Translations under genes and position numbers: made by a program
Part shown: in pieces, positions 8,064 through 27,001 of the stretch
Layout: each line of letters opens with the position of its first letter
How positions within the stretch are numbered: the first letter of the stretch is position 1
The notes under the pieces: model-generated
Database searches by the model: none
Seen by the model: the letters and a program-made list of their open reading frames with translations, nothing else
Told to the model about the DNA's origin: nothing
Source of the DNA: an uncultured Planctomycetota bacterium
Lineage (GTDB): Bacteria; Planctomycetota; Planctomycetia; Isosphaerales; Isosphaeraceae
DNA: 64,000 nucleotides
Assembly (NCBI GenBank): GCA_963845755.1
Contig: CAWJTV010000040.1
Coordinates: forward strand, 64,001 to 128,000
Reading direction: 5' to 3'

Positions 8064-9555
8064 CGGCCGGCTTCACGCGGCTGGCAGGTTCATGACGACC
8101 TCCCCGCCCATGCTCGAGCCGACCTCTACGTCTGCCCGGCAACTGTCGTAGCACTGCTTGGCCGCTTTGGTGGCGATCGTCCTGCCCACTGATTAGGCGC
8201 GACTTCCCGACGTCCCAGCCTTCGTGTCCTGATTTTCTGTCTTGTCGGGGGACGTGGAGGACCCCGACACAGCCGTTTCCGTGCCAGTTTCAGACTTCGT
8301 GCTCTTCTGTTGCTTCTGCCGGTTATACCGCCGAGGGAAACCCTTCGGATAGATTTCGAGGGGTGGCGTACGCCTCTTCTTCCGCTCTAGCTGGCAAAAC
8401 GTCTCGACATCGTCCTCGCGCGAGAGGAGGACCTTCAGGAAACTGACGCCTCGGTACTTGCAGGTCTGGTAGATACTCAGCAGCACGAGGTGGTCCGACA
8501 GCCCCTCTTCGATCATCTGGCCGTCGTAAAGCTCGCGAAAGAGGGCGAACGCCTTGATCGCGTGCTCCGCAGCGTTGTTGTTCCAGGGGATGTTGTCGTG
8601 GTCCAGAAAGGTGAAGAGCCCGCCCTCGTTCTCGAGGAGCCGCCTCTGGTAGCCCTCCGCCAGCTCGGAGCGGTAGACGCGGGGGGCCAGGTCGCGGTAG
8701 AAGTGGGCGACCTCGGCCTTGTGCCTTTACAGGTAGCGTTTTTTCAGCCCGTGCTTGTCGATCGTGTCCACAATGGCCCGCAACAACTTGGCGAACTCCG
8801 CTGCCAGTCCCTTGAACTCGTCATCGTAGGGGTTGCCCTTCAGGTCATTGTTGATGTCACGGATCATGTGGATGAGGCACTTCTGCTGTGCGCACGGCAG
8901 CGAGTCGTAGCCGGAGTAGAAATCGGAGACCATCACCCCCTTGAACTCCTTGAGAAGTTCGTGGACGAAGGCCGTTTCCCGGTTGGGCCTGTACATGTAA
9001 AGAACGTCCTCCAGGTTCGCCAGGACCCACGCATATCCCTTGCCTTTCTTCAGGTTGGCGTGGGTCTCGTCGATGTGGAGCAGCCCGCCCCCGACAATCC
9101 TCGCGAGGATCTGATTGAAGGTCGTCCGGTAGCGGTCCGCCATGACCGCCTTTATATCCATTAGTTCCCAGAGACTGACTTTCAGGCCGAAGCAGTCCTC
9201 GAACATTGTCCCGAGTTGCCGAAGGCTAACGCGGTCAACGATGTGCTGGTAAACGGCCCAGCTCTTTAGCCCGTGGAAGTGCTTGTCTCGCCTCTTGTAC
9301 CGCTCGGGCAGAAACCCCTTCCGACAATCCTCGCACTGGTGGCGGAGAGCGGTGCAGCGGACGACCTGCCTGCGGATGCCACCCGGTGTAAACTTGAGGT
9401 CGTAGGCGAGCTTGACACTTTTCTTCTTGCCGACCCGGATGATCCGGTTCCCGTTGCAGAATGGGCACGAATCGCTCGTGATCTCGACTTCCCTATTCAC
9501 GGGCAGATTCGACCGCTTCTTCTGCTTGCGTTGGCTCAGACAGGCCCGCCTGACC

Positions 9556-10843
9556 CAGGGCTAGCGCGTAACTGTGGCTAGATTGGGCAACCTGGGTCAT
9601 GTTTTCTTTTTGTGATCCTTTGTCTATCATTCTCGATGGCGCTCCCTTTGCGACTACCCACGGAGGATGGACCATGGCGGAAGTTCGGCGGATCGGTCTG
9701 GACGAGGTCGCACGGCACTTCGAGGAGTTGGAGGACCCGCGCTCCTCGGTCAATCGCAAGCATCCCCTGGTCAGCGTGGTCATCATCGCCGTGATGGCGG
9801 TCCTGGCCGGCGCCAACGGACCCACCGCGATCGCCAAATGGGCCGCCCTCAAGGAGGAGTTCCTCGTGGCAAACCTGGACTTGCCCGATGGGGTCCCGCG
9901 CAAGGATGTCTTCCGTCGCGTTCTGATGGCCCTGCGGCCGGGGGCCTTCCAGGCCTGTTTTGTGAGCTGGCTGGAGTCGCTGCGCACCGAGGCGGCCGCG
10001 GCGACCGGCGTGGAGCAGCCCGTCCTCGCGGTTGACGGCAAGACGGCGCGGCGGAGCCACGATCGCCAGAACGGCCTGGGCGCGTTGCATTCGGTCAGCA
10101 TCTGGGCCAGCGAGTTCGGCCTGACGCTGGGGCAGGTGGCCTGCGCCGAGAAGTCCCACGAGATCACGGCGATCCCCGAGGTCCTGCGGCTGGTGGACAT
10201 CAGGGGGGCGATCATCACCATCGACGCGATCGGGGCCCAGAAGGCGATCGCGGCGGAGATCATCGACGGCGAGGGGGACTACGTCCTGGCGCTGAAAGGG
10301 AACCAGGAGACGCTCCATCAGGCGGTCATCGATCACATCCACGAACAACTCGAGGGCGAGTTGGAGGGGGCCCAAGAGCAGGTAACGACCGAGAAGGGCC
10401 ATGGGCGCCAGGAGACGCGTACGTATCTCCAACTCCCGGCCCCCGAGGGCCTGCCGGGGTTCGGGCTCTGGAAGGCGCTGAAGACGATCGCGGTGGTGAC
10501 CTCGCTGTGCGTCCGCGACGGGAAACAGAGCGTCGAGGTCCGGTACTACATCAGCAGCCTGACCATGGACGTGAAGCGGCTGGCGAGGGCTGTCCGGGGC
10601 CACTGGGGTATCGAGAATAGCTGCCATTGGGTGCTCGACGTGACCTATCGCGAGGACGAGTCGCGGATCCGCGAGGAGGCGCTGCGGGAGAACTTCGCCT
10701 GGCTCAACCGCTTCACGTTGTCGCTCTTGAAACAGCATCCCGACCGCACCAGCCTCGCCATGAAACGTCGTAGTTGTGGCTGGAACGAAAACTACTTGCT
10801 GCAAGTCCTTACCGGATCTACATGTTAGTATGCGCTGGCCCTG
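9556..10843 (+). mobile_element. ISAs1 family insertion sequence
   Basis: IRs CAGGGCTAGCGCGTA / CAGGGCCAGCGCATA. 10-bp TSD CCGCCTGACC at 9546-9555 and 10844-10853. Confidence 0.95.
9674..10828 (+). CDS. ISAs1 family transposase
   Basis: DPR...H, AVDGKTARRS, EKSHEITAIP, ITIDA, LALKGNQ, HWGIEN..HW.LDV...ED. Confidence 0.95.
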   Translation: MAEVRRIGLDEVARHFEELEDPRSSVNRKHPLVSVVIIAVMAVLAGANGPTAIAKWAALKEEFLVANLDLPDGVPRKDVFRRVLMALRPGAFQACFVSWLESLRTEAAAATGVEQPVLAVDGKTARRSHDRQNGLGALHSVSIWASEFGLTLGQVACAEKSHEITAIPEVLRLVDIRGAIITIDAIGAQKAIAAEIIDGEGDYVLALKGNQETLHQAVIDHIHEQLEGELEGAQEQVTTEKGHGRQETRTYLQLPAPEGLPGFGLWKALKTIAVVTSLCVRDGKQSVEVRYYISSLTMDVKRLARAVRGHWGIENSCHWVLDVTYREDESRIREEALRENFAWLNRFTLSLLKQHPDRTSLAMKRRSCGWNENYLLQVLTGSTC

Positions 10844-11814
10844 CCGCCTGACCGCCCTGCTGGTGCGGACGAAGACCTTGTCGCGTTGGTAGTCGAAGTA
10901 AGCACAGCGGTTGACGTGGTCGAAGTCCTGGAGTGCGAACTTGGGACGGCACCACTGGTGGCAACGTGACGGGGCGACATCGTCCGCCCACACAACGGCC
11001 GGAGAAGACGAGGTAGATGTCGCCTCTGCACCCCGGATTCGTCCGGCGTCGGCGAGAGCCTTGACGAACTCCGTCACCTGCTTCAGGGCGGTACAGTCCT
11101 CGGCGTTGTAGATATGGAGCTTCTCCTTCCAGACTGCTTTCCGACTTTCCTGCCAGCGCGCCCGCCACACCAGGCTCTGCAAGCCTGAGGCATCTTCGTC
11201 CGACCATGTGCAGCCCAGGTATCGGCCCACGTCCTTGAGTCCGTTGGAGAAGGCGGGAAAGTACACATTGGAGTGGATGGCGGACAGGACGTTCACGGCG
11301 TTGGCGAGCAGGCGGTCCACGAGCTTCGTCCGCTTCACGACCTTCCTCATCCGTTGCAGCAATCTCCTCTCGTAGTTGCCGTAATGAAACAAGACAAAGT
11401 CCTCGCGGCCGTCCAGCAGGTCCAGGAAACCGTCGAATACCTCCACCTCCTGGTCCGGGCCATCCGCCCAGAAGGAGTGCATCTTCTGGCCGGCGCCCTC
11501 GACCACGAGGACGCCCAACAAGTAGGCGAAACGACCATCCTCGACGCCCTCGGCGTCGAAGAACACCTGCACCTGCTTGTATGGGATGTCGGGCGTGCCA
11601 TAGACGTGGACCTTCTTCTCGCGGATGGCCAGTGCCTGCAAGGCAGCGTAGTGGGGATAGCTTGTTCGCTTGACTCGCTTGCCTCTTTTCCGGGGGCGGA
11701 AGGTGCAGGATAGCTGCATCAGGGTGAAGATCTGGCCTGCTCCCCATTTCTTGGTCCAGTGATAATGGGAATCACCTGTTCGTTGATTCAGTAGACGAGG
11801 GATCGGGCGGGTCT

Positions 11815-12670
11815 TCATCGATAGGCACATACCTCACACAAGTGGCCGCGAATTCGGCCGGTGTCTGATATCCCAGGGAACTGTGCGGGCGTTCGGTATT
11901 GTACTCCTCCATCCAGAGCGCCCAACGCCCTGGCCTGCGGTTCGCTCTCGAATTCCTCGCGGTTCAGGAACTCGTCACGGACCTTGCTATGAAACGACTC
12001 CGCATAACCGTTCTGCCAGGGGCTCCCCGGCGCCACGGGCCAGGTCCCGGAGCCGGTGTCCTCCAGCCACGACCGCACCACCTCGGCAACGAACTCCGGC
12101 CCGTTGTCGCTTCGCATCCGGCACGGCGGGCCGCCGCGACCGGCCGCGACTTCGGCCAGGATGACCCGGATGTCCTCGGCCGTCATACCCCGGCGCGGCT
12201 CCAAGGCCAAGCATTCTCGAGTATATTCATCAACAATACTCAGCCATTTGAGACTTCGACCGTCACTGGTACGGTCGAAGATAAAGTCCCATGTCCATAC
12301 GTCGTTTTTCCCGCGCGGGCCGGAGGTGGCAGGCATTCTCGTCCTGCCCATGAGCCCGGCGCGGCTTGGGATTGGCCCGCGGTTGGGCCACTTTCAGCCC
12401 CAGCTCGCGATAGAGTCGACGCACGGCCTTCTTGTTGACCGTCCAGCCCTCGCGATCCAGCAAGGCCCAGATCCGCCGGTAGCCGAACCGCGGTCGGGCC
12501 CCGGCCAGTTCCTCGATGCGTCGAGCCAGCGCCACCTGCTCATCGCGAACGACCGGCGCGTAGCGAAGGCCGGACCGGGCCAGGTCCAGCGCCCGCGACG
12601 CGCGGCGTTGAGATACGTGGAATTCTTCACATAATTCTTTGACGATCATGCGGCGTCTGGGGGCAGTCAT
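11815..12670 (-). pseudogene. IS3 OrfB integrase core (frameshifted)
   Basis: RFGYRRI, VWTWDF, IVDEYTRE, RSDNGPEF, PWQNGYAESF. Frameshift near 12315. Confidence 0.9.
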
Positions 12671-12942
12671 GGCTTTTTTTTCAAGGCCTCCTGGAGCATG
12701 CGGCGGTCCAGCGCCAGCTCGGCGACCAGGAGCTTGAGGCGATCGATTTCGGCTTCGAGTTCTGAAATGTGAAATTGTTCACGCGATATAGGTTCCTCCT
12801 GGAGAGCCTTCCAGCGGTAGTAGGTCGTCGGTCCGATGCCGGCCTTGCGGCAGGCCTGGTGGAGGGTCAAGCCGGCGTCGAGGTCGGCTTGGAAGTCTCG
12901 AAGGATGGATGCAATCTGGTCCGGACTCGGTCGTTTTCGCAT
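12667..12942 (-). CDS. IS3 OrfA
   Basis: HTH (ACRKAGIGPTTYYRWK) and leucine zipper. A8G slippery run at its 3' end. Confidence 0.9.
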   Translation of the reverse strand: MRKRPSPDQIASILRDFQADLDAGLTLHQACRKAGIGPTTYYRWKALQEEPISREQFHISELEAEIDRLKLLVAELALDRRMLQEALKKKP

Positions 12943-13964
12943 GGGTCGCTCCCTGGCTCTGTGCCAGTTGTACGATCCCCATTAAGACTGGACCAGGTTT
13001 TGGGGGGCAGGCCAATCCCTTTGCGGTTGTACCTCTTCAACTCCTTCTCGCCCACGCCCGCGAGCAGGCTGATGTCGTCCGCCTTCTCCGCCTGCGTGCG
13101 GCATCGTTGCCGGAACTCGCAGAGGTGACAATGCTTGTTGAGCGTCAGTTTCGGTAGCTCGCCGCCTGCCCGGAGTTGCTTGACCTCGTCCAACACCTGC
13201 TCCGCCTGCCGGTAGAGCTTCGCGTCCAGGCAGACCTTGCCCAGGCGGCCATCGAGGCCACGGGTGACCAGCCCCACGACGGGCCGCACCCCCTGCACGC
13301 GGGCGAGGATCAGTCCAAGCACGGCAAGCAGCAGTTTCCGGGGCTGGCCGATCTTGTCCCCATGGTTGTGCAGGACAGGCAGGTAGTGGTGTTCGCCTAG
13401 CTTCGAGATCCCGTCCGCCCGTTTGAGGGCGTCGAGGCGGATCGACATGCCGTCGTCCTCAAGTGTGGCGTCCGCCAGCACCGGTGCTCCCTGCTGCAAC
13501 GTTGCGGCCGTGATGGCGTTCCCTCGGTAGGCGTTGCCCCGCCCAAAGCGGGTGACGAGCTGAGCGAGGGACACTTCCCGCGACGCTTGGCTGGCCGCCT
13601 CGGTCATTAGCTCGTAGTCCGACCTGATGCCGGTCTCACCGACGAGCTTCAGGTGCCCCCTGGTCTTGCAGTTCACATACCCTTCCATGATCTCGTTGGT
13701 GATCTTCATGGCTGCGTCCCTCCACGGATGCTCCTCTCCGGCAGGGCGTGACGACGCCCGTCGCCTTCGATCGTGCTGGAGATTGCCTGTTGGCCTGAAA
13801 GATGGCAGCTTCCGGGTGCCGCTGTTTCGTCGGCCGGGCGAATGGATAGTCATTATAGGCCGAGGGCCACCCCCTGACGATGCGGTGGTTGGCGATGGGC
13901 GGACCATGGTTCGTGGCTGGCCAACGACGGAGTCGAGGGTCGGCCTTCCGCAGGATCGCCTCGG

Positions 13965-14047
13965 GTTATGTGGCGTTCGAGGTTGATGTTGCCCGTGTGA
14001 GAGGCGGGGGAGAGGTCGGGCGCAACATAATGAACTCCACAACATAA
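13965..14047. repeat. putative RIT element terminus
   Basis: GTTATGTGGCG (13965) faces CGCAACATAA. CAACATAA is directly repeated at 14023 and 14040 (17-bp period), resembling tyrosine-recombinase binding repeats. Confidence 0.5.
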
Positions 14048-14118
14048 TTGTAATAATATGGTCAGCCACATTACTACAAGGTCATGACGGGCTCGGATCG
14101 CATGCCGGTGCTGATCGA

Positions 14119-14642
14119 TCAGCGGATTTGAGGCGACAGCCGCCGGTCAGCCTGCATCCGGGCCGACGTGCGTAATGAGGGCGCGTCGAAGAGGGCCATC
14201 TCCTCGGGCGTCGGAGCCTGGAAGATGTCGGACCATCGGGACAGCGCATCGTCTTCGATCGGCGGATTCTCCATGCCCCGGCGTTGAATCCGGTCGAAGA
14301 GGAGGTCCAGGGGCGCGGAGAGATAATGCAACTCTACGGAGGCGCCGAGCGCCCGTGCCCCGAGTCGCAAGGCATCGCGCTCAGCCCTTCCCCATGTGCC
14401 CCATTCGATGATCACAGTGAGACCGAGGGTAAGAAGCCGCTGGCCGAATCCCCATTGCAGCGCCTCGATCTTCGCGCGACGCTCTTCGTCATAGAGGTCG
14501 AGCGACAGCGCCTCCAACCAATCGTCGGGGGAGAGCCGGACCGCGGCAGGCTGCCTTCCAGCGCCTTCGCCAGCGTGGTCTTTCCCGAACCCGGCAAGCC
14601 GCAAACGATGATCAGTCTCGGCCCGGCGGCGTTACTTTCCAT
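14119..14642 (-). CDS. AAA_33-type P-loop kinase (frameshift near 14545)
   Basis: LIIVCGLPGSGKTT, then RLSPDDW...VIIEWGTW in the adjacent frame. Confidence 0.8.
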
Positions 14643-14654
14643 GCGCGTGCGGCG

Positions 14655-14945
14655 TCAATTGCCCTCTGCCGCCTCCGCGAACTCGTCGTGCCGGCGGAAC
14701 AGGAAGGCGACGCGTTCGCCGCGCCGTTCGAGCTCGTAGGGATAGAGCGTGTCGAACGGTCCGTCCTTATCGAGGCGGCCGCGCATGACGTGATTCCATT
14801 CGACGAGCGTGGGCATCATCGCGAAGAGCCGATCCTCCTCCTGTCCCGGCATCCGGACGAGGTGGCAGAACCGCTTGATCTCGTCGATCTTCAGCACCAG
14901 GCCGTCATGCGGACCGCGGTAGAATTCGGCGCGTGTGCCCGGCAT
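14655..14945 (-). CDS. hypothetical protein
   Basis: ORF with AAGGA RBS and AEFYRGPHDG motif. Directly upstream of the kinase. Confidence 0.55.
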   Translation of the reverse strand: MPGTRAEFYRGPHDGLVLKIDEIKRFCHLVRMPGQEEDRLFAMMPTLVEWNHVMRGRLDKDGPFDTLYPYELERRGERVAFLFRRHDEFAEAAEGN

Positions 14946-15061
14946 GGGCATTCCTTTCGCATGCAAGGATGGATCTGATCCGTAGCCTGGGTGCCTCCTA
15001 TGCTATTTTACCATCCCGGCACCATCTGGCCAGCCGAACAGATATGGGTTAAGATTGCTGC

Positions 15062-15687
15062 ATGCGTTGCTTCCTGGCCGTCTTCCTGGTCGCGCTCTCC
15101 ATACCCGCCTTTGGGATGACGCCGCGCGCGTCGTCGGCATCTCCGACGGCGACACGATCACGGTCCTCACCGCGGCGAAGAAGCAGGTCAAGGTCCGGCT
15201 CTGGGGGATCGACGCGCCGGAGACCGGGCAGGACTTCGGCAGCCGCGCCAAGCAGGGTGCCGCCAGCCTCGCGTTCGGCAAGCAGGTCACCATCCGCGTC
15301 CGCGATACCGACGGCTACGGTCGCACCGTGGCCGAGGTGATCCTGCCGGACGGCCGCTCGATGAACCGCGAGATGGTCGGGCAAGGGATGGCCTGCTGGT
15401 ACAAGCAATACGCCCCGCGCGACGCCGATCTTGCCCGGCTCGAGGCCGAGGCGAAGGCAGCGAGGATCGGGCTATGGAGCCAGCCGAATCCCGTCCCGCC
15501 ATGGTACTGGTGGCATGGCGAGGGCGTTCCTGAGACGGCGGACGTTAAGGGGAACCGACGAAGCCGTGTCTCTCACAAGCCGAGCTGCCGGGCCGCAGCG
15601 GTAAGGAGCGAGAAGAATAGGGTGACCTTCGCCAGCGAGGCGGACGCGGAGAAGGCCGGGTATCGGAAGGCAGGGGATTGTCGGTAG
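15062..15687 (+). CDS. thermonuclease (SNase) with C-terminal Ada metal-binding-like domain
   Basis: ISDGDT, RLWGIDAPE, DGYGRTVA, GLWS, then GN..S...H...C...AEKAGYR. Signal peptide sits in the adjacent frame (frameshift ~15115). Confidence 0.85.
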
Positions 15688-15711
15688 GACGCGCGATCCC
15701 TGAAATTGAAT

Positions 15712-15786
15712 TGGCGCAGGGGATGGGATTCGAACCCATGTCTCCGGGGTTCTAGCCCGGTGAGTTGACCGCTACTCTACCCCTGC
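15712..15786 (-). tRNA. atypical tRNA, anticodon AGA (nominally Ser) with short variable loop
   Basis: GCAGGGG/CCCCTGC acceptor, G73, CCA; GAGT/ACTC D stem; CCGGG-CTAGAAC-CCCGG anticodon arm; AGAC variable loop; ATGGG-TTCGAAT-CCCAT T arm. Confidence 0.9.
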
Positions 15787-15817
15787 GCCACCATCGTACG
15801 GCAGTTACGAACAGCGG

Positions 15818-15925
15818 TCACGGCTTCTTGGGCGAAGTGGCAGACTTCACCGGAACGGCCTTCGGAGCCGCAGCCTTCTTGGGCTTCTTCTTTTCCTTGG
15901 TCTGCGAATGGTTGCCTTTGCCCAT
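15818..15925 (-). CDS. 35-aa Lys-rich peptide MGKGNHSQTKEKKKPKKAAAPKAVPVKSATSPKKP
   Basis: ATG to TGA ORF with AAGG upstream. Ends 31 nt before the tRNA on the same strand. Absent from the ORF track. Confidence 0.6.
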   Translation of the reverse strand: MGKGNHSQTKEKKKPKKAAAPKAVPVKSATSPKKP

Positions 15926-16059
15926 CGTCGTCGCCTTGATTTGGGGACTAGGTGGATATCACAAGAGTGTCCGTCCGGTGAAGTGCATCTACAAAGCGGC
16001 GTGACTCCCCGCGATGATAGTGCTGTCGGGGCCAGTGGTCCCGTCAGGGAGATCACGCC

Positions 16060-16425
16060 GTGTCTCGAAGCCGAACCATCGATCTACGATGGAATGCCCT
16101 CCTCAACGATTTCCGCAGGAGCGGTCTGACTCAAGCCGAGTTCTGCCGCCTTCGCCAAATCTCGCTTCACTCCTTCCGAAAGCATCTCTACCAGCCCGCC
16201 CCGGCCGATCGCACTCCCAGCGACGATCGTCCTTTCGCCAGTGCCGACCGCCATTTCCTCCCGGTCACTATCCTTCCCGATCCCATCCCGCCGAGCGCCG
16301 CCTCGGGACCCCACCTCGAACTCATCCTCTCCAACGGACGTCGGATCGCCGTCGCCCCCGGATTCGACCCCCTGACCCTCCGCCATCTCATCGCGGTCGT
16401 GGAGGGACGCCCATGTTCGGACTGA
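16060..16425 (+). CDS. tnpA: IS66 accessory protein TnpA
   Basis: W.....F.RSGLTQAEFCR...FLPV...LELILSNG.RI.V..GFD. Confidence 0.85.
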   Translation: MSRSRTIDLRWNALLNDFRRSGLTQAEFCRLRQISLHSFRKHLYQPAPADRTPSDDRPFASADRHFLPVTILPDPIPPSAASGPHLELILSNGRRIAVAPGFDPLTLRHLIAVVEGRPCSD

Positions 16426-16747
16426 GCGCCGCGGTCCGCGTCTATCTCGCCAAACAGCCGGCCGACATGCGCAAGAGCTTTGACGGCCTGGCCGCCCTGG
16501 CATCAGGCAGCCTGGCGCTAGATCCCCTCTCCGGTCATCTCTTCGTCTTCGTCAACAAGCGCCGCGACCGCATCAAGATCCTGTACTGGGATCGCGATGG
16601 CCTGGCCGTCTGGGCCAAGAAGTACGAGTAAGACTGCCCCCATCCTCTCGACTTTACAGGAATCGTCGGACACCCCCATAATCGCGCTGGCCGGCCTGAT
16701 GCGGCTGGCGGAATGGATCGAAGCTCAACACCCCGTGATCCAAGGAG

Positions 16748-16945
16748 GTGCCCCATGTCGCGAGACGCCGGACTCGTTGCTCCCCCCCGCGCACGTCGGT
16801 CGTTCGGCCGTCGGTGCTGGACCAACTCTGGAGCCGACTGACGGACGAGCAGCGTCAACGAACGCTGCTCACCCTCAGCGACATCGTGACTCGACAACTC
16901 GGCGCGCCTCGCACCGCTCAGGAGGTGCGCGATGAAATCTCGTGA
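16748..16945 (+). CDS. small ORF overlapping the recombinase start
   Basis: LWSRLTDEQRQRTLLTLSDIVTRQL...EVRDEIS overlaps the ATG at 16932. Start codon uncertain. Confidence 0.5.
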   Translation: MPHVARRRTRCSPPRTSVVRPSVLDQLWSRLTDEQRQRTLLTLSDIVTRQLGAPRTAQEVRDEIS

Positions 16946-19112
16946 TGCACGGGCCGTCAATCGCACGGACAGATCAATCGACGAGACTCCATCGACCTCC
17001 ACCTTCGGCCAGAGGTCGAGCTCGAAGATTGGCGATCGGCATCTCGATCGACTCGCGATCGTGTACGTGCGGCAGTTGACGCCGCAGCAAGTCCTCGAGA
17101 ACCGCGAGTCTCGCGAACGGCAGTATGCTCTGGCGCAGTTCGCGCAACGGCTCGGTTGGCCCGCAGAGCGGGTGGTGATCATCGACGAGGATCAGGGCCA
17201 CGGCGGCAAGTTGACCGACCATCGCACGGGCTTCCAGCGGTTGATGACGGAAGTGAGCTTGAACCACGTGGGGATCGTGCTGGGGTTGGAGCTTAGCAGG
17301 GTGTCGCGGTCGAATACCGAATGGCATCGTCTTATCGACGTCTGCGGCATCTTTCGCACCCTGCTATGCGATCAAGATGGCGTCTACGATGCCTTGGACA
17401 GTAACGATCGTCTCCTCCTTGGCATGAAAATCGCAATGAGCGAATACGAATTGATTACTATGTACAATCGTTTGCTTCGAGGCAGTCGGAACAAAGCGGA
17501 GCGCGGCGAGCTGTTCCTGGCCGTTCCGCTGGGATACCTCAAGACGGCCACGGGCGAGATCATTCAAGAGCCTGACGAGCAGCGCGTGGAATGATTCAGT
17601 TGGTGTTCGAGAAGTTCGAGGAACTCGGTTCCGCCTACGCGGTCTTCCGTTACCTGGTCGTGAACAACCTGCAACTGGGATTTCGCCGTCATCGCGGTGG
17701 GCGCATTGGGGAGCTGGAGTGGAAGCCAGCCTCTCCCAGTCGAGTCCTGTCGATCTTGCGACACCCCATCTATGCGGGGGCATACGCTTATGGCCTACAT
17801 TGCGCGGGGACGAAGAATCCCACGACGGGTCGAGCCGAAGGCGGCAAGTGGTTCGTGCCGCCCGAGGAGTTGGCCGTGTTCCTGCCGGATCGGCTCCCAG
17901 CGTACATTAGCTGGGATCGCTATCTCGCGAATCAGGAACGCCTCAAACAGAATCGATCGCTCCACGACACGCGGGGCGTGCCCAAACGCGGCGAGGCCTT
18001 GCTGCCCGGCCTGGTCGTCTGTGGGAAATGCGGCCGCCACATGACGACGCGATACAAGGCCGACAAGAAGCCCGGCTATCACTGCGGCGAGTATTGGCGG
18101 CTGGCCCTGGACGAGCCGTGCGGGTGCATCTCGGCAAAGACGCTGGACGACCTGGTCGCGAAGGAAGTGCTCCGCGCGTTGGAGCCCGCTGCGCTGGACC
18201 TGAGCCTACGCGCGATCGAGAACGCCGAGCGAGAGCGCAAGCGCCTCCACGACCATTGGCGTCAGACTCTGGAACGTGCACGCCAGGAGGTCGAGAGGGC
18301 CGAGCGGCAGTATCAGGCCGTGGAGCCCGAGAACCGACTCGTGGCGCGGACACTCGAGCGCGGTGGGAGGACTGCGCTGAAGAAGCAGCGTCAAACGGAG
18401 GAGGATTACCATCGGTTCCTGACGAGACTGCCGGCGACGCTGAACGACGCCGATCGCCAACGGATTCGATCGCTCTCCGAGAGCGTCGCCGCGCTCTGGC
18501 ACGCACCAGGCACGTCGGCGATGGATCGCAAGCAGATCGGTGCGCTGCGCGGTGGAGCGGGTCATTGTCGTGGCCGACAAGGCGACTGAGCTCAACGAGG
18601 TAACGATCGTTTGGCTCGGCGGCATGACAACCCAACAGCAGGTCGCGAGGCCAGTCGGCAGGTATGAGCAATTGAAGGATTTTCGACGCCTCACGGAACG
18701 AATCAAGCAACTCCATCGAGAAGGACTTCACCTGTCGCAGATCGCCGCGCGGCTCAATGCCGAGGGCTTCGTCCCGCCGCGCCGTCGCGGCGTGTTCACG
18801 GCGGGAACGATCGGGGCGTTGGTCCGTGAACTTGGGCTGGTCGGAGAACTGTTCCGCGACGACCTCGTCGGCCAGGACGAGTGGTGGATCCCCGACTTGG
18901 CCGGGAAACTCGGCGTCATCGCCCAGAAGGTCCATTATTGGATCAAGCAGGGTTGGGTCCATTCGCGGCGTACGCCTTCGGGAAAGCATCTGATCGTGTG
19001 GGCCGACAAGGACGAGGTTCGTCGCCTGCGACAACTGGCCAGACGAAAGAACTCCTGGATCGCCGCCCGGCACCCTGAGTTGGTCGTTCCCAAGGACCGT
19101 CCCGACCGGTAG
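16932..19112 (+). pseudogene. large serine recombinase (resolvase, recombinase, Zn-ribbon, coiled coil, HTH), frameshifted
   Basis: AIVYVRQLT, IDEDQG, ELSRVSR, PLGY, HPIYAG, GLVVCGKCG, VEPENRLVARTLE. Frameshifts near 17585, 18365 and 18540. Confidence 0.9.
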
Positions 19113-19428
19113 CAAGAGAGGCCGCCGATTTGTGGCGGCAGTAGCCCAACGTCTCAGGATTTGTGTAACGCCACAAGAACGAGGGTCCTGTGATGCCAGC
19201 ATCAAGAGGCTCGAACGCGGCACCTTCCGCATCCCGGACGCGGCGGCCGATCGCGTCGAGATGACCACCGCCGAACTCGCCGCCCTCCTGGCCGGCATCG
19301 ATCTGGACAAGGCCCGACGGCGCGTCCGCTACTCGCGGCCCGCCACTCCCCTTCGAAATTCGGAGAATAATCTACCGACAGGAGCATAATGCGCCAACAA
19401 TCGAGCACCCGTCAACGTAGTATAGGGT

Positions 19429-21005
19429 ATGATCACCCTCGCGGACCCACTCCCGGACGACCTGGAGGCGGCCCATCAGCTCATCCGTGAGCTGCTCAAG
19501 TCGCTCGCCCAGCAGGTCCATCTCAACGAGAAGCTCCAGCACCAGCTCGAGCAGCTCCTCCGCCAGCGCGTACGGTCCCAAAGGGGAGCGGATCGACCCG
19601 GCCCAGCTCTTGCTCTTCGCCCGGGAGATCCTGGAGCAGGCCGAGGCGGCGCCGACACCCGCCCCGACCCCGGAGCCGGCCCCGGCCCCGACGCCCGCTC
19701 CGAGTGCGGCCCAGAAGAAGGGCCACGGACGCAAGCCGTTGCCGGCGAGCCTGCCCCGAGTGCCGGTCTTGCACGACGTCCCGCCCGAACAACGCACTTG
19801 CCCCGACTGCGGCGCCGAGCGCACCTGCATCGGCCGGGAAGTCCGCGAGCAACTCGAATTCATCCCCGCCCGCCTGGTCATCCTCGAACCCATCCGCCCC
19901 AAGTACGCTTGCCAGGACTGCCAGGCCAACGTCGTGATCGCCGACGTGCTCCCCGAGCCGATCGACAAGGGCCTGCCAGGCCCGGGGCTGCTGGCTTACG
20001 TCGCCGTCAGCAAATATGCCGATCACTTGCCGCTCTATCGCCTCGAGGGAATCCTCGATCGCTCGGGCGTCGAGTTGTCGCGGTTGACGATGTGCGACTG
20101 GATGGCCACGATCGCCGATCTGCTCAAGCCGATCGTCGATCTGATGCTGAAGAAGATCCTCAGCTCCAGGGTCGTCCAGAACGACGACACGACGGTGCCG
20201 GTGCAGGACCACGACGGCAAGGGGATCAAGACCGGCCGGCTCTGGGTCTCCGTCGGCGACCGCGGCCATCCTTACGTGGTCTATCGCTACACGCCGGACC
20301 GCAGCGCCACCGGGCCCCGGGAGATCTTCAAGGACTTCCAGGGTTATCTCCAGGCCGACGCCTATTCGGCCTACGACGGCCTGTACAAGTCGGGCGAGAT
20401 TATCGAGGTCGGCTGCATGATGCACGCGCGACGGAAGTTCTACGAGGCGCGGACCGTTCGACCCGCAACGGTCCCATCAGGCGCTGGCATGGATCAGCCT
20501 GCTCTACGACGTCGAACGCGACGCCAAGAAGCGCGAGACCGCGGACTACGAGGCCTTCGTCGCGTTCCGGCACGAACTGCGAAACGAGCGATCGCGTTCG
20601 ATCTTCGACAAGTTTCACGCCTGGCTGGAAGCCGAGCAGCCCAAGGTTCTGCCCAAGAGTCCGATCGGCGAAGCGATCCAGTATGCCTTGAACCATTGGG
20701 AGGCCCTGAAGCGTCCGTTGGAGGCCGGGTTCCTCGAACTGGACAACGGTGCGTGCGCGTGCGCGTTCAAGCCCGTGGCGCTGGGACGGAAGAACTGGTT
20801 ATTCGCGGGGAGCGACCAGGGAGGCCAGACGGCGGCCGTGTTGATGAGCTTGTGCACGACCTGCAAGAATCTGGGGATCGACCCCCAGGCTTACCTCCGC
20901 GATGGGCTCGATCGGATCAGCACGCACCCGGCGAAGCGGATCGACGAACTGCTGCCGGACCGCTGGCAGGAGTTGCACCAGGCCGGCGCCGACGGGACTG
21001 AGTGA
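19429..21005 (+). pseudogene. tnpC: IS66 transposase TnpC (frameshifted)
   Basis: KKGHGRKPLP, CPDCG, KYADHLPLYR, NDDT, LQADAY, LELDNG, GRKNWLFAGS, IDPQAYL, LLPDRW. Confidence 0.92.
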
Positions 21006-21218
21006 CCGCACCCGAGCCCCGCGCTCCTCGTCACCCCGGACGAGCGCGGGGCGATTGCGCGCGCCCCTCAAGGTTTGTCCCGCCCCAAGTTCGTCTCGGC
21101 CCGGCGCGAGCGCGGGATGATCGCGTGCGCCGAGCACAGTGAAAGAATCAAGACGGTGCCCCGAACATCATCTCACGCCCGTGAACCGCTTTGAAGATGT
21201 GGTTCACCGGACGCACTC

Positions 21219-21530
21219 CAGCAAGGGGCCCAGTTCCGCAGCCTGACCGACGGAATCGACACCACGACCCCGGCGGGTCGGTTCTTCTTCCACGTGATGG
21301 CGTCGCTGGCCCAGATGGAACGGGAGCTGATGACCGAACGCACCCGGGCCGGGCTGGACGCGGCACGCCGGCGGGGGCGGGTCGGCGGCCGCAAGCGAAG
21401 GATGACACCAGGGAAGGTCGAGTCGGCCCGCAAGCTCTTAAAGGGAGGGATGGCGCCTTGGGACGTGGCCCAGAATCTCGGTGTCTCGATCCCGACGCTT
21501 TATCGATGGGTCCCCGCCACAACTCGTTGA
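21219..21530 (+). pseudogene. serine resolvase/invertase, C-terminal half
   Basis: QFRSLTDGIDTTTPAGRFFFHVMASLAQMERELMTERT...GGR...LGVSIPTLYRW. Cut by the IS66 end. Confidence 0.85.
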
Positions 21531-21579: not shown

Positions 21580-24234
21580 CTAGCCCAACCCGTAGAGGAG
21601 ATATGGGGCCCAGAAAATCTCGTGGTCGAACCGACCGTCGGCGGACTGCCGCAGAGCTTTGACCGCCTCCTTCAGCGACACCGCAAATGCATTCGGCTCG
21701 CGGTTTGATGCGTCGAATACGTTCCGCCTCAGAGCCGCCGCGTAGTGCGAGGCAAACTCGGCAGCGGCCGCGTCGGCCAGCCACCACATCGCGCCAGACA
21801 TTCGCCGGCACCCGCGGACGGCGAGGGCCGCGAAGAACCCCTCTGCTTGACGGTCGGCATCCTCTGATTTCAATTGGGCGAGGAGGCAACAAGAGGCGTG
21901 AAACAGCCAGCACCCCCGGAAGTCATACTTGTCCGCCACGATCCGGGCGGCGGTCAACGGGGCGTCGCACAGGAAAAGCCCCGGGCTGTCGATCTGGCCC
22001 ACTCCCTCGAGCTCGTCCAGTGCCGTACCGCCATGGCAGGCGGCCCATACAACGGTCGCGTCAGACAGGGCCGTCCGCATGTTGTCTCGACTGGCGTAGC
22101 GGCCGAGGTCCGACGGGTCGGAGGTCAGGTCGCCGAATACCTGCCACCGATTCGCCCCGCTGGCGGCGACCACGTTTCCAACTTCCTCGGCAACGCCAGA
22201 GATGTCATCCCCGAAACGGTACTCTCCGCTTATGCCGGTCGGGTTGGCGAACAACGCTCCCCGTAGGGGCACCGGCCCCTCAAAACGGGTAGATTGACGA
22301 TCCTCGATCTGTTCAAGCGTGTGCAGCGTCCGTAGGGACAGGCCGTACCGTACCGACCCGACGGCGTCGAGGAGTGGTCGTCTGCTCAAACGGACCCAGG
22401 CCGCGTGCAACGGGAGTTGATAGAGCTGCACGTCCGGTAGGAGCACCAAGTGGAGTGTCTCCCACTTTCCGGGGTCTGGCTCGATGTGGTCGAGCAGCTG
22501 GTCGAGCTGCATGACCCGACCTAGCTCCACCATGAGACTGGCGGGGGGACGAGGGTAATCGTCGGTCGGGCCAGACCGCGGCGGCCACTCACAGACCAGG
22601 GGCTCGAGCTCCGTGACGGGGTTGTCGGTGCCGTACCCAGTCAGCCGGTCGAGTTGCTCGCGGAGGTTGTCGGCCGAAGTGCCAAGGGTAACGAGCGGCT
22701 CGGGCAAATCCTGTTCTGTCGTATCCGTACTCCCGACGGCGGGGGCGACACCGACGACGGATAATGCCTGCGACCACTGCTTGGTGAGGCGATTGATTTC
22801 GTGCCAGACGCCTTCGATCACGAAGTATCCGTTGGGGGCAAGTAACTCCGTTGGCTGGCCATCCGGCCCGCGACGGACCGGGACGACGTACAGGTCGTAA
22901 TTGACGAAGTCGAACAGGACGTAGACGGTGTTCGGGTAGCCGGCCGGGGAGGCCGACAACCATGCGGTGAGTTCGTCGGACAGGAGCGGACCGACCACCG
23001 GCCGTTCGGCAGGTTTGGGGTCGTCGGGGAGTTCGACGACGCAGACGGGCAGCCGGCCCGACTCATCCGTGCAACGCCGCCCTCGTCTGATCCCCGACAG
23101 GCTTCCGATAGGGCGGGATACTCGGATGGCCCATTCCTCTTCGTCCGCAACCCACGTTCCGACAGACGGAGGAGAGGGTTGGTGGGCGTGGCGGTGGAGG
23201 GCCTCACGGACCCAGAACGCTTTGTTGCCGTCCAGGAACTCGGTGCCGACGAGTTGGCTGTGATCTTTCCACGACAACTCCCCGTTCTCGTACCGTCTGC
23301 CTTGCGAACGAAGGCCTTCCTCAAATATGCCACTGTGATCGCGCAGCTTCGCCACAATATGATGGGGTGAGCTGCACTCGTCCGTTAACCACCACGCGAG
23401 TTCGAGCTGTGCCAGACGGTAGTACTTCACCGCCGTGCCGTACTGCTTCATGTTCGAATAAACAAAACCTATCCCTCTATATGCAAAACATTTCAATTCG
23501 CTTAGTGAGTCATCCATTCGATCGACCATTTCAGCGGCCTGACGCAAGTGCGGCTCGGCCTCCAAGGGCGAGCCGGTCGTGGCCAATAATTGAGCGTGTT
23601 GAAAATAGGCATGGAATCTGGTGCGTGCGAGCAACTCTGGGACGTCACGCGACTCGTCCGAGGTGACCGACCCAGTAGCAGTCCTCAACCCGTCTGCCAG
23701 GTCGGCTGCTCGCGTCAGGTACGGCTCGGCTTCCTTGGTGCGTTGATGCCTGAGAAGGAAGTAACCGTAGTTTTCGAAGGCGCGGCACCGGATGATTGGA
23801 CCCACTGCTTCGCTGGTGGGATCCATCTTTTCGCTGAGCTGAGCAGCCTGATACAGATACTGCCCGGCCTCCGATACGCGATCGGCTTCCTCGCACTTGT
23901 GGCCGAGCTTAACGAGAAAATCGACGCGTTTGTAGTCGTATCTGATCCTCTGAACCAACGCCGCCATGTCCTCGATGACGTCCCCTGTCGTGACCACAAC
24001 GCCCTCGACACCCACCATCATCTCGCTGTCGATTATGACAATAGATTGAGATTGGTTATCGTCTGCTTGAAGTACGCCAATAGCTGGAGTGTTGCTTGCG
24101 TGGACTTTGAGACTGGATCGAATGTCGGGTAGTTGTGGATCTTCCTTGGCCTCCTGCACCTGGTCAAGGGGGGCAATCCGCACGACTTCCGAGGGGTGCT
24201 TACGGGCCGACGGCTTCCTCCGCTTCCTGGCCAT
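21580..24234 (-). CDS. TPR + CHAT (caspase-like protease) domain protein
   Basis: TPR-like helices (EAEPYLTRA, EAEPHLRQA, AVKYYRLA). CHAT motifs LLPD..LYQLPLHA, ACHG, HASCC, AMWWLAD, FWAPYLLYG. Confidence 0.85.
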   Translation of the reverse strand: MARKRRKPSARKHPSEVVRIAPLDQVQEAKEDPQLPDIRSSLKVHASNTPAIGVLQADDNQSQSIVIIDSEMMVGVEGVVVTTGDVIEDMAALVQRIRYDYKRVDFLVKLGHKCEEADRVSEAGQYLYQAAQLSEKMDPTSEAVGPIIRCRAFENYGYFLLRHQRTKEAEPYLTRAADLADGLRTATGSVTSDESRDVPELLARTRFHAYFQHAQLLATTGSPLEAEPHLRQAAEMVDRMDDSLSELKCFAYRGIGFVYSNMKQYGTAVKYYRLAQLELAWWLTDECSSPHHIVAKLRDHSGIFEEGLRSQGRRYENGELSWKDHSQLVGTEFLDGNKAFWVREALHRHAHQPSPPSVGTWVADEEEWAIRVSRPIGSLSGIRRGRRCTDESGRLPVCVVELPDDPKPAERPVVGPLLSDELTAWLSASPAGYPNTVYVLFDFVNYDLYVVPVRRGPDGQPTELLAPNGYFVIEGVWHEINRLTKQWSQALSVVGVAPAVGSTDTTEQDLPEPLVTLGTSADNLREQLDRLTGYGTDNPVTELEPLVCEWPPRSGPTDDYPRPPASLMVELGRVMQLDQLLDHIEPDPGKWETLHLVLLPDVQLYQLPLHAAWVRLSRRPLLDAVGSVRYGLSLRTLHTLEQIEDRQSTRFEGPVPLRGALFANPTGISGEYRFGDDISGVAEEVGNVVAASGANRWQVFGDLTSDPSDLGRYASRDNMRTALSDATVVWAACHGGTALDELEGVGQIDSPGLFLCDAPLTAARIVADKYDFRGCWLFHASCCLLAQLKSEDADRQAEGFFAALAVRGCRRMSGAMWWLADAAAAEFASHYAAALRRNVFDASNREPNAFAVSLKEAVKALRQSADGRFDHEIFWAPYLLYGLG

Positions 24235-24727
24235 GAGGTCTCACCCTTTCTTGAGGACGCGCCCCTACCTTGGAGGCCATTTCGGCGGAGTATCCCAACG
24301 CCTTGACGAACTCGACGACCGCCCGTTCCCGAGCGTCTGCGGGGAACAGAGACGCCAGTTCGCGCAACATCTGAGGCAACACCTTGTCCGGAGAGAGGGT
24401 CGCTTTGTACGCCACTTTCTGGGCGGCCCGCGAGGAGCCGAGCGACGACCGGACTCCGGCTCTCACAAGCGGGGTCGGCTTCCCGCCGTCAAACTGCATT
24501 TCGCGGAATACCCCTTTGGCCACCCCGTTCCGTAGGGTTGTGGCCACGGTCGTCAGCGCGGGCTCTGGGAGTCCGAGTTCCCGCCGGCGGGCGGCGACCT
24601 TATCCCTCACCTCGGACAGGTAGGCGGCCTCGCGGCCCTCGGCGGTGAGGCTCCAAAGACCTTGCAGGACTTCCACTTCGGCGAACGTGGGGGTGACGAC
24701 CGTCGGCTTATCCACGCGAGACCTCAA
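24200..24727 (-). CDS. BlaI/MecI/CopY-like winged-helix regulator
   Basis: TFAEVEVLQGLW...SEVRD...PALTTVATTLRNGVAKG resembles the BlaI wHTH. Confidence 0.6.
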   Translation of the reverse strand: MRSRVDKPTVVTPTFAEVEVLQGLWSLTAEGREAAYLSEVRDKVAARRRELGLPEPALTTVATTLRNGVAKGVFREMQFDGGKPTPLVRAGVRSSLGSSRAAQKVAYKATLSPDKVLPQMLRELASLFPADARERAVVEFVKALGYSAEMASKVGARPQERVRPHGQEAEEAVGP

Positions 24728-25065
24728 AAAAACTGGCGGGTACTTGATAACTAATCTCTAGTTACCGTAGTATAAGTCAGTCACAGAACCCATAGTAACG
24801 ACAGGGAGCAGCGAAGTCCAGTAGAAGAAGTCCCCGAAGCTCGGCAAGGGATGCGAACTGGTTTCCGTCCGTCTTGCTTGAAAGGTTGAATCCCCGGGGA
24901 GTAGCTGCCCCGTTCCTGTTCAAGCGGAACCCGAAACCATCGGGAGGATCGCCGTGCGCGCCTCCAAGGCCCGGAGCCAACACCCGTGACTCCCGCCGCA
25001 AAGCAACGACCCTCAACCCGGATCTCCCGCACCACCACGTTCAACACCTTGAGAAGGAGCCCTCG

Positions 25066-27001
25066 ATGCCTCGACAACGAAAGCATGCGTACCAGATCGA
25101 GAAGTTGAATCAACTGGAAAACCGCGCCCTCATGACGGCCCGGATCGCCGCGTCCGTCATCCCCGAGACCTCCCCCTGGAATGTCCGGAAGCCGATCATC
25201 GCGGTCCTCGACGGACCCACCGGCTCTGAACACGCGGCCGATGTCGTCAATGTCATTCAACGACGCATTTATGCGTCCGGCCTGTCGCCGGGGAATGTCA
25301 CCATCATGCAACTGGTGGTCGAGGACCCCGCTGGCCGTGTCATTCCCGCCGAACTCATCCAGGCCGTGGCTTCCGCGAAGGCGAACGGGGCCACGGTCGC
25401 GAACCTGAGCTTTCGCTTGGATTCGCTGCGTCCCGAGGATTGGGACGCCCTGGCCGCCGCAGCCGGGGATCTCCCGCTGGTCGTTGCCTCAGGAAATGAT
25501 GGACAGTCCTCGACGTTGGCCGTGTCGCTGAAGGCGAAGGGCTTTAATGCCCTTGTCGTCGGCGCTTCTGACGGGCATGGTCGCCGCTCCTCGTTCAGCG
25601 ACTACGGACCGGGCATCATCTTCGCACCGGGGCAGCGGCTCCGCGTGAATGACCCCGTCTTCGGCCGTGGTCTGGTGAGCGGGACATCGTTCGCGGCGGC
25701 TAACAAGTCGGCGGAGATGGCTGTCATCGCCGCGAGACATCCCGAGTTGAGTCCGGACCAGGCCGCTGACCGAGTGCGCCGCTCCGATGCCACGGTCTGG
25801 GGCCCCGAGGAGGGATTTTCCAAGGACTCGCTCCATCGCCGCGCGGCTGTCGCCAATACAATCGGGGGCAGTCCTGGCACCTTGGCTGGTGCGAAGAGTG
25901 ACCAGCTTAGTTGGCTCAGCCACGCCATCGGCGGCATCACCAACACCTTCAAGGGGGTCTTCAACAAGCTTGCAGACACCCTCAAGAAGATCGACAGTGG
26001 AATCGGGGACCTTTTCCAAAACCTGATTCCGTCGAAACAAAGTATCAAGCGCGTTCTGAATGCACTCGTGCATGGAAATCTATTGGATCTCCTCCCGACC
26101 GTGGAGGCTCTCGGATTCCACATCAGCAGTGACAACTACGGCGAAGTCGTCAATGACCTTGCCCGTAAGTATGGTCGCGGCAACGTCTATGTCGCCTCCC
26201 AGGACTTCGTCCGGTGGTTAGGCCCCCCGACGATGATCAGAGACGGCTTGGCGATTGGCGCTACCGGAGGGGTCGGTCTTGCATTGACAATTGACGACGT
26301 GAAAGCTCACGTCGAGCAAGAGTGGCCACCCCTTCGCAACTGGCTGATCAAGCGGGGCATTGACAATGTTCGACTCCGTCTTGAACTCGATCGTCTCGGG
26401 CTCCTCCGAGGATAACCCCTACTTCGCGATCAAGTGGCCTCACTTCTCGGTCCGCTACAAGGCCAGTTACGTCTTCGGCGCCATCAGACCAACAGTGACC
26501 CTCACACACTACGGTTTCGCCGTGGTCTTCAAGAGTCCCGGGTCGTCCAGCCAGTCATCCAACCCCCCGAGTGCGCCTCCCACGGCAAGCGGCAACCAGC
26601 CTCCTGCAACGTCCCCCCCGGGCGGCAGCAACCCGACCCCGGTATCGCCTCCCCCGCCTAGCGACCCCGGGCCTCCCGCTAACATCACCATCGCCAAGGT
26701 TGAAGGGAAATTCCCAGATTACGTCGCCATCACAAACTCTGGTGAGAACCTCGATCTCGAGAATTTCATCCTCAAGGAGGGCAACAACTCATTCACGTTT
26801 CCGGCCATCACCATTGGGGCTGGCCACACCATCCGGGTGTACTTCGTGAGTGACAATGACTCTTACCGCCTCGGCCAGGCCGAGACCGCCAAGGGGCCAG
26901 AGGACCTCCTCTACCAAGGTTGGGGAATAAGTTCTGGGGAGGTTGTCGACTTTTTGGATCGACAGGGGAATGTCCTTAGCCAAGTTCAGGCCACGGACTG
27001 A
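25066..27001 (+). CDS. secreted S8 subtilase with Pro-rich linker and lamin-tail-like domain (frameshift ~26360)
   Basis: LENRALM N-terminal motif; IAVLDG, EHAADV, VASGNDG, SFSDYG, SGTSFAA; second frame has DYVAITNSG..LDL..F.LK....FTFP. Confidence 0.75.

Follow-up and report, generated by a model that had tools for sequence, protein, structure and literature searches.

The window, the whole stretch of 64,000 nucleotides that was analyzed, covers positions 64001-128000 of contig C40 in a 14.3-Mb assembly (genome G000, 88% complete). On its minus strand, a small open reading frame (ORF) stops 31 nt upstream of a tRNA-like gene with the anticodon AGA. The features of the locus are as follows.

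15712..15786, minus strand: tRNA-like gene, very probably initiator-derived, anticodon AGA, class I cloverleaf with encoded CCA (ARAGORN, Rfam, fold)
15746..15758, minus strand: three consecutive G-C pairs closing the anticodon loop (G29-C41/G30-C40/G31-C39)
15751..15753, minus strand: anticodon AGA (A34 invariant in the family, 35 and 36 variable)
15793..15798, minus strand: predicted -10 hexamer, 6 nt before G1 (from the TAnnnT spacing)
15816..15821, minus strand: possible, weak -35 hexamer, 17 nt upstream of the -10 and sharing sequence with the small ORF's stop codon
15818..15925, minus strand: unannotated 35-residue Lys/Pro/Ala-rich ORF, partner of the RNA (homologs in 15 of 120 relatives)
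15934..15937, minus strand: Shine-Dalgarno-like site of the small ORF (GAGG in homologs)
15055..15687, plus strand: convergent staphylococcal-nuclease-family gene (PF00565), a context that is not conserved
15967..21219, plus strand: 5.25-kb IS66/recombinase element, a repeat that adjoins the upstream side of the small ORF, context (Pfam; six further copies besides the duplicate on contig C19)

ARAGORN called the gene tRNA-Ser(AGA), and Rfam RF00005 matched positions 15712-15786 over their full length (69.5 bits, E 4e-13). The cloverleaf is the minimum-energy fold (-31 kcal/mol, z -2.24), and equal stability was reached in 4 of 200 shuffles. Read directly from the sequence, the stems contain 7/4/5/5 Watson-Crick pairs, the anticodon loop has 7 nt (CU-AGA-AC) and the variable loop has 4 nt. 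Besides the three G-C pairs, the gene possesses A11-U24, G1-C72 and G73, a canonical elbow (G18-G19 and a UUC T-loop), U33 and A37. An earlier note on this DNA had described a perfect cloverleaf with AGA, a short variable loop and three G-C pairs, and ARAGORN, Rfam and the fold all agree with this description.

The host assembly contains indel errors: some genes are frameshifted, and the window copy and its duplicate on contig C19 differ by 3 gaps and 3 mismatches in 2954 nt. The C19 duplicate also has AGA; it sits in a 10.7-kb segment that is duplicated there with other flanking sequence, has lost 1 nt from the 3′ acceptor strand and does not count as independent of the window copy. AGA was also found in G484 and G461, which belong to two other genera, making three genera in all. 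A 151-nt contig of run X4 (depth 2) spans 15684-15833 with no anticodon difference listed, one base inserted behind 15737 and two unlisted mismatches, and supports AGA weakly. Since AGA recurs in the C19 copy and in two other genera, a sequencing slip in the anticodon was set aside. The duplication joins window positions 9240-21219 to C19:2503-13199 at 99.7-99.8% identity with differing flanks, and an IS3 element at 11733-13014 is present only in the window copy.

Distribution and descent of the family

A covariance model built on 10 copies, in which the choice of A34 genes as the training set introduces a small bias, detected 37 copies in 29 genomes from two families of the host's class. The window gene, itself a training member, scored 97.4 bits under this model (R1). 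In the host family, where members scored at least 85 bits and ordinary tRNAs at most 65, there were 14 copies in 11 of 121 genomes; 10 of these copies are the training rows. The second family yielded 13 copies in 10 of 30 genomes and 17 copies in 13 of 151 genomes (lowest 69 bits), together 23 copies in 18 genomes. Searches of 85 genomes from other families of the class and of 150 genomes from the phylum, with 31-39 candidates scored per genome, yielded no member.

The earlier note had asked whether reads or homologs show a conventional anticodon. All 37 copies possess A34 anticodons and none is conventional; the anticodon parser required A34, and the three copies that it left unparsed were read by eye and also have A34. 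The anticodons are AAU (27 copies), AAA (5), AGA (4) and AUU (1), corresponding to Ile, Phe, Ser and Asn codons, respectively. A34 and C38 are constant in the family.

The stems were analyzed in 32 aligned copies, 31 of them distinct, with the C19 duplicate, G555 and the three unparsed copies set apart. Pairing was observed in 99.8% of 651 stem cells, and both sides had changed in 6 of 21 pairs. None of 500 shuffles matched the stem pairing and the two-sided changes, and 88 of 500 matched the count of pair types; as kin are not independent, these figures are support and not a probability. G30-C40 and G31-C39 are present in all 31 distinct rows and G29-C41 in 29. A purine 11-pyrimidine 24 pair is a feature of initiator tRNAs, and it is kept in every row (A-U in 30, G-U in 1); the G628 copy, which stands outside the 31-row alignment, has U11-A24. 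Positions 18 and 55 co-vary, with G18 and U55 in the AGA and G530 copies and A18 and G55 in the rest. C37 occurs in 33 of 37 copies, and G55, paired with A18 in the aligned rows, in 31 of 37. The AGA branch retains G18, U55 and A37, which most relatives do not.

Several searches pointed to the initiator tRNA as the source of this body. A pattern free of the anticodon, consisting of the D arm and a short variable loop, was found at 67 loci in one genome per species and in viral contigs, and 60 of these are CAU tRNAs of the initiator type. Among the ordinary tRNAs of the host genome, the initiator scores highest under the family model (59 bits, the next scoring 51). The best-scoring ordinary tRNAs were CAU tRNAs at 15 of 19 loci in host-family relatives, the others being array Thr(CGU) genes (3 of 19) and one odd initiator-like gene, and CAU initiators at 19 of 19 loci in the phylum sample. 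The initiator-like, non-serine body proposed in the earlier note is thus supported by the model rankings and by the anticodon-free pattern. The acceptor end, the 4-nt loop and the T stem also resemble the array Thr(CGU) genes, and a mosaic origin from initiator and Thr(CGU)-like parts is possible.

In a tree based on 74 columns without the anticodon, the 32 family rows were split from 21 initiators with an ultrafast bootstrap value of 100. The AAU, AAA and AUU copies formed one clade (97), and the AGA copies fell outside it, nearer to the initiator outgroup, in what is a short alignment with a long outgroup branch. Judged by the nucleotides that it retains, the AGA branch is the most canonical form of the family. 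Based on these results, we regard it as nearly certain that the window gene belongs to a family of tRNA-shaped RNAs descended from initiator tRNA and kept under selection, with a paired G1-C72, A34 anticodons and, usually, a linked small basic protein.

Other tRNAs with initiator-like bodies were seen in the course of these searches. The host family's own initiators (G000:C34:359353, L336-L355) mostly have A29-U41 in place of the first G-C pair, and often U1-A72. At L341:1502-1578 (G472), an initiator-derived tRNA with G1-C72, a 4-nt variable loop and an 8-nt anticodon loop precedes a small ORF that has a strong ribosome-binding site. An identical initiator-body tRNA with a CCU anticodon is present in 12 viral or metagenome contigs (L158, L163, L165, L168, L191, L207, L211, L225, L227, L240, L257, L265). 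Further initiator bodies carry CCU or CGU, and some singletons may be sequencing errors; among L206, L215 and L264 are initiator-like bodies whose anticodon is GGA (with a short variable loop and U73) or ACA. The host genome also possesses a 36-gene tRNA array (G000:C41:590256-593662) and a smaller array (C20:431840-451106) that includes a UAU-anticodon tRNA.

Viral contigs contained one distinct copy, identical to that of G536. BLASTN of 40 relatives gave no homolog, although the model later found members in relatives. A pattern for variable loops of 5-7 nt, which leaves the 4-nt loop of the window gene outside, gave 0 hits in 401 genomes and 41 viral stretches containing no tRNA; refitted to the gene, the viral pattern gave 37 stretches, of which 9 were new and without a tRNA. 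The whole-collection patterns required a UUC T-loop and are hence blind to the AAU branch; one of them would have detected AGA copies sharing this D stem, yet its 104 loci included none. A 13-base pattern was dropped because its matches were at chance level. Plasmids contained no homolog of the RNA or of the small protein, and viral contigs no relative of the small protein. The family is apparently undescribed: no account was found in the literature searched, which lay mostly outside subscription papers and supplements. No passage bearing on it was met in PMC9897764, PMC13092985, PMC1933168 or PMC8421152. Entries for these genes may exist under Ile(AAT) or Ser(AGA) in tRNA databases and in the supplements of A34 surveys.

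The small reading frame, the neighbourhood and the promoter

Differences among the homologs of the small ORF fall 93/29/170 by codon position. These differences and the conserved ribosome-binding site indicate that the ORF behaves as coding. The small protein had no match in NCBIfam, Pfam or PDB; it matched 18 cluster representatives, hypothetical where named, and its matches in the protein atlas were confined to unnamed clusters of 31-36 aa (score 0.90-0.93). In the host family, homologs were found at 19 loci in 16 of 121 genomes, with the RNA intact at 11 loci, decayed at 4 and absent at 4. The ORF lies within 200 nt of 21 of the 37 RNA copies, upstream in 18 and downstream in 3. Of 5 genomes tested in which it is unlinked, 4 carry the ORF at another place.

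The protein was present in 10 of 11 RNA-positive versus 6 of 110 RNA-negative genomes of the host family and, counting strong matches, in 12 of 13 versus 13 of 138 genomes of the second family; these are counts among kin, so that the support is overstated. The small protein (L459-L487, L488, L489) is spread wider than the RNA, reaching 38 of 151 second-family genomes at E 0.001. Two distant homologs of the protein were found in 250 phylum genomes, with no such RNA nearby. An attenuator arrangement was considered and rejected, as the small ORF shows no conservation of the cognate codon.

Among the neighbours listed, no other gene was conserved and no synthetase gene stood beside any copy examined. 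ThrRS, SerRS and the class Ia synthetases each occur once per genome in all five genomes counted, of which three carry AGA copies. In G557 and G576, both of one genus, the RNA follows an IF-1 gene by 7-9 nt, and an RF3 gene lies downstream of one RNA copy. In genus g28 there are two IF-1 types (L445, L447 and L449 versus L446 and L448); both occur in G557, and it is the second type that precedes the RNA. The earlier note had suggested mobile DNA. This holds for the window copy, which lies in an IS-rich, duplicated segment, but not for the family, whose neighbours are varied and include housekeeping genes.

SNase genes are also found near the G530a and G536 copies. Genes resembling nucleases or RNA-repair enzymes occur near three copies: at 14119-15687 of the window (SNase and an AAA_33 kinase-like gene), at L358 and at L434. 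G530a has SNase, HNH and kinase genes nearby, and G536 has SNase and RlaP genes in a predicted viral region. Elsewhere in the window, a CHAT/TPR protease gene and a subtilase gene point away from each other, separated by a small repressor-like ORF (21580-26415), and a stand-alone ORF (12867-14069) gave a weak Cas4-like match below the Pfam cut-off.

In 18 of 37 copies (16 genomes), TAnnnT precedes G1 by exactly 6 nt, and every other spacing occurs at most twice. The genome background is 0.24% per position, and 0 of 40 other first-in-unit tRNAs of the host genome have TAnnnT at 6 nt. A generic promoter scan did not report the hexamer at 15793..15798. In the standard sigma-70 geometry, a -10 hexamer at 6 nt places the transcription start at G1. 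We therefore predict from this spacing that transcription starts at G1 and that the RNA is leaderless with a 5′ triphosphate. An overlap of the -35 hexamer with the stop codon of the ORF would account for the 31-nt gap between stop codon and G1, which recurs in 8 of 11 intact linked host-family copies. Some copies follow a stop codon by 4-9 nt, and these would need processing. RNase P RNA is present. A -10-like hexamer also stands 5-6 nt before position 1 in 17 of 21 host-family initiators versus 0 of 19 initiators elsewhere in the phylum, and the host family's own initiators may be leaderless too. An 11-bp extended acceptor helix, which would form if a leader were included, was rejected, as its pairing is not conserved in relatives.

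Identity elements and possible functions

Identity elements were compared with the table in PMC9976931, which gives bacterial Ser, Met, Asp and Thr sets with a long arm for Ser. It lists C2-G71 as a SerRS antideterminant, and states that formylation requires an unpaired C1-A72 and that MetRS requires CAU. For tRNA-Ser, G73, C72 and G30-C40 are present in the window gene. The long variable arm is absent (4-nt loop), and so are G2-C71 and C11-G24, in place of which C2-G71 and A11-U24 are found. Position 73 is G in 24 and A in 9 of 34 parsed copies. For the initiator, the three G-C pairs of the anticodon stem are present, as noted; CAU is replaced by AGA here and occurs in 0 of 37 family copies, and the formylation identity, an unpaired or weak 1-72 with A73, is absent, with G73 here and G1-C72 in 31 of 31 distinct rows.

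The acceptor set of tRNA-Thr (G1-C72, C2-G71, G4-C69, G5-C68) is complete in the window gene, and its pairs are kept in 31, 27, 30 and 25 of 31 rows, respectively, the remainder being G-U. Of the Thr anticodon elements, G35 is present and A36 takes the place of U36. G73 and C38 of the Asp set are present, and its anticodon is not. Thus, none of the published identity sets is complete in the window gene: Ser lacks the long arm, Met lacks CAU and Thr lacks U36. These incomplete sets and the paired 1-72 indicate that the RNA is neither a serine tRNA nor an initiator, and under the published identity rules its serylation is unlikely. Of about 100 tRNA calls in the host genome, two sets of four are long-arm serine tRNAs; the window gene is therefore not needed for reading serine codons. 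Nor is a bacterial Y RNA of the YrlA type indicated, as RF00005 is the only Rfam family in the window and no TROVE match was found among the scanned neighbours.

The explanation that we tentatively prefer is that the RNA is an uncharged mimic of initiator tRNA that acts on ribosomes, probably with the small basic protein. The RNA would be made from its own promoter starting at G1, with no need for an RNase P cut. No host synthetase would charge it well, and formylation would be impossible. The uncharged RNA would bind the ribosome, in the P site or on the 30S subunit, through the three G-C pairs, which are read by G1338/A1339 of 16S rRNA in the P site (PMC5389676). Under some condition the RNA, probably with the protein, would damp or hold translation initiation.

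This explanation is favoured by codon meaning that is not conserved on one body (Ile, Phe, Ser and Asn), by C37 and A18/G55 in most copies, which are presumably poor for A-site decoding, and by G-C pairs kept although the host family's initiators mostly have A29-U41. The absence of both CAU and an unpaired 1-72, the lack of an adjoining synthetase together with the single-copy ThrRS, SerRS and class Ia enzymes, the IF-1 gene upstream in G557 and G576, and the co-occurrence of protein and RNA with the ORF on either side are in the same direction. However, none of the canonical decoding features has been lost from the window copy, and pure mimicry leaves the constant A34 unexplained; with variable 35 and 36, this is the pattern of the tRNA-ProX mistranslators. 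Furthermore, the IF-1 link is confined to one genus and counts as one event, the protein persists where the RNA is decayed (4 of 19 host-family loci) or absent (4 of 19), and the promoter is found in only half of the copies.

Deliberate mistranslation is the main rival, although we consider it rather doubtful. The RNA would then be an elongator weakly charged by a host synthetase, most plausibly ThrRS, and would insert that residue at a rare U-ending codon, here UCU, in the way that tRNA-ProX inserts proline. The complete and conserved Thr acceptor set is in line with this, as is the rank of the array Thr(CGU) genes, the one further kind of tRNA to score near the top under the model (3 of 19 loci); G35 in AGA and U36 in AAU each leave the anticodon one step from that of Thr. 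The window copy looks fully able to decode. UCU is the rarest serine codon of the host (4.9% of Ser, 2.9 per 1000), which would limit harm. Two precedents in E. coli are at hand: tRNA-ProX, with A34 and varying anticodons, mistranslates (PMC10404621), and an orthogonal AGA tRNA was able to reassign UCU (19.7%, with 1.4% for UCC; Table 1 of PMC11066159). Against this, U36 is absent here and the AAA copies lack both G35 and U36; no dedicated or duplicated synthetase was found among the neighbours listed or, for ThrRS, SerRS and class Ia, in the five genomes; C37 and G55 in most relatives argue against shared decoding; and the role of the partner protein is left unexplained.

A two-gene module for translation control in planctomycetes, in which a leaderless, 5′-triphosphorylated, initiator-derived RNA and the 35-residue basic protein hold or occupy ribosomes, is conceivable but uncertain. 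In it, the AGA form may still read UCU, either charged with a non-serine residue or uncharged, and rare U-ending codons would set the site of action. The U-ending codons read by the four anticodons occur at 2.9 (UCU), 4.1 (UUU), 5.0 (AUU) and 6.9 (AAU) per 1000 in the host genome. Such rarity would fit a restrained mistranslator or a codon-gated uncharged RNA. The start codon AUC of infC was rejected as a target, as the AAU RNA might touch it and the AGA RNA cannot; in 5 of 5 genomes (L454-L458), AUC preceded by a GGAG site is apparently the start of infC.

Some VapC toxins cut initiator tRNA, and the RNA could be a decoy or sponge for enzymes that attack initiators (VapC-type nucleases, acetyltransferase toxins), preserving the initiator anticodon stem with the anticodon left free. 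The presence of PIN, ParE, HNH, SNase and RlaP genes near several copies would suit a decoy, but no toxin family is a conserved neighbour among those listed and viral contigs hold a single distinct copy; we consider this improbable.

We give just as little credence to a neutral passenger, that is, an initiator gene duplicated beside the small-protein gene and drifting in its anticodon. Decay of the RNA at 4 of 19 ORF loci, the patchy distribution (11 of 121 and 13 of 151 genomes) and the IS-rich setting of the window copy would be expected of a passenger. The paired stems with their six two-sided changes, the joint change of positions 18 and 55, and the presence of the RNA in two families and on either side of the ORF argue against a passenger.

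An aminoacyl donor for a non-ribosomal pathway, analogous to the staphylococcal non-proteinogenic tRNA-Gly, is very unlikely. That tRNA lacks the G18/G19 and U55/C56 set (PMC4574755) and most family members alter 18 and 55, but the window copy has a canonical elbow, no identity set is complete and no transferase was found among the scanned neighbours. Finally, an ordinary tRNA-Ser or an anticodon artefact, suggested by the Ser elements G73 and G30-C40 and by the indel errors of the assembly, is largely refuted and keeps hardly any probability, given the missing long arm, the antideterminant C2-G71, the two sets of four long-arm serine tRNAs in the host and the presence of AGA in three genera.

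Comparison with known systems

According to PMC8007984 and PMC11066159, A34 tRNAs other than Arg(ACG) are almost entirely absent from bacteria. The present family is a conserved bacterial one with four A34 anticodons, whose members are annotated by anticodon as Ile, Phe, Ser or Asn tRNAs. Because its AGA branch has a fully canonical fold, this branch lends itself best to experiments in E. coli, and it might serve as an orthogonal tRNA scaffold. From the promoter spacing, leaderless tRNAs, among them the initiators of the host family, are predicted in bacteria that possess RNase P.

Compared with bacterial initiator tRNA-fMet, the family is alike in the D arm with A11-U24, in the three G-C pairs of the anticodon stem and in overall sequence. 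The best ordinary match agrees at 49 of 64 positions in a set enriched for initiators, and initiators stand at the top of the unbiased model rankings. In contrast to tRNA-fMet, the family has a paired G1-C72, G73, C38, a 4-nt variable loop and no CAU. Engineered initiator anticodon mutants (bioRxiv 10.64898/2026.04.16.719103) likewise combine an initiator body with non-CAU anticodons, some with A34. They are variants of the metY gene in which the anticodon alone was changed, whereas the natural family has a paired 1-72.

The staphylococcal non-proteinogenic tRNA-Gly, as described in PMC4574755, shares an altered D-loop/T-loop elbow with most family members; the window copy differs in its canonical elbow and in having no Gly identity (no U73, no CC anticodon). 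The allo-tRNAs and irregular tRNA polycistrons (PMC5389517, PMC7609411) are also non-canonical tRNAs of soil bacteria, some inactive in translation and near toxin-antitoxin genes. Their acceptor branch is 8/4 or 9/3 in these reports, whereas the window gene has 7/5 and a 4-nt variable loop.

tRNA-ProX (tRNA-ProA/ProT/ProN of Streptomyces and Kitasatospora; PMC10404621) resembles the present family in its patchy distribution and in one body with several A34 anticodons that disagree with that body. As reported there, tRNA-ProX has a proline body, C1:G72, an adjacent ProRSx gene and demonstrated mistranslation. The family described here, known from sequence alone, has instead an initiator body, G1-C72, a small basic protein and no synthetase among the scanned neighbours. 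A decoding function would make it a second natural family that mistranslates sense codons, one without a dedicated synthetase. As a mimic, it would represent a natural RNA regulator derived from initiator tRNA and partnered by a small protein, and such a ribosome-mimic module, if shown, would be categorically new among non-canonical tRNAs.
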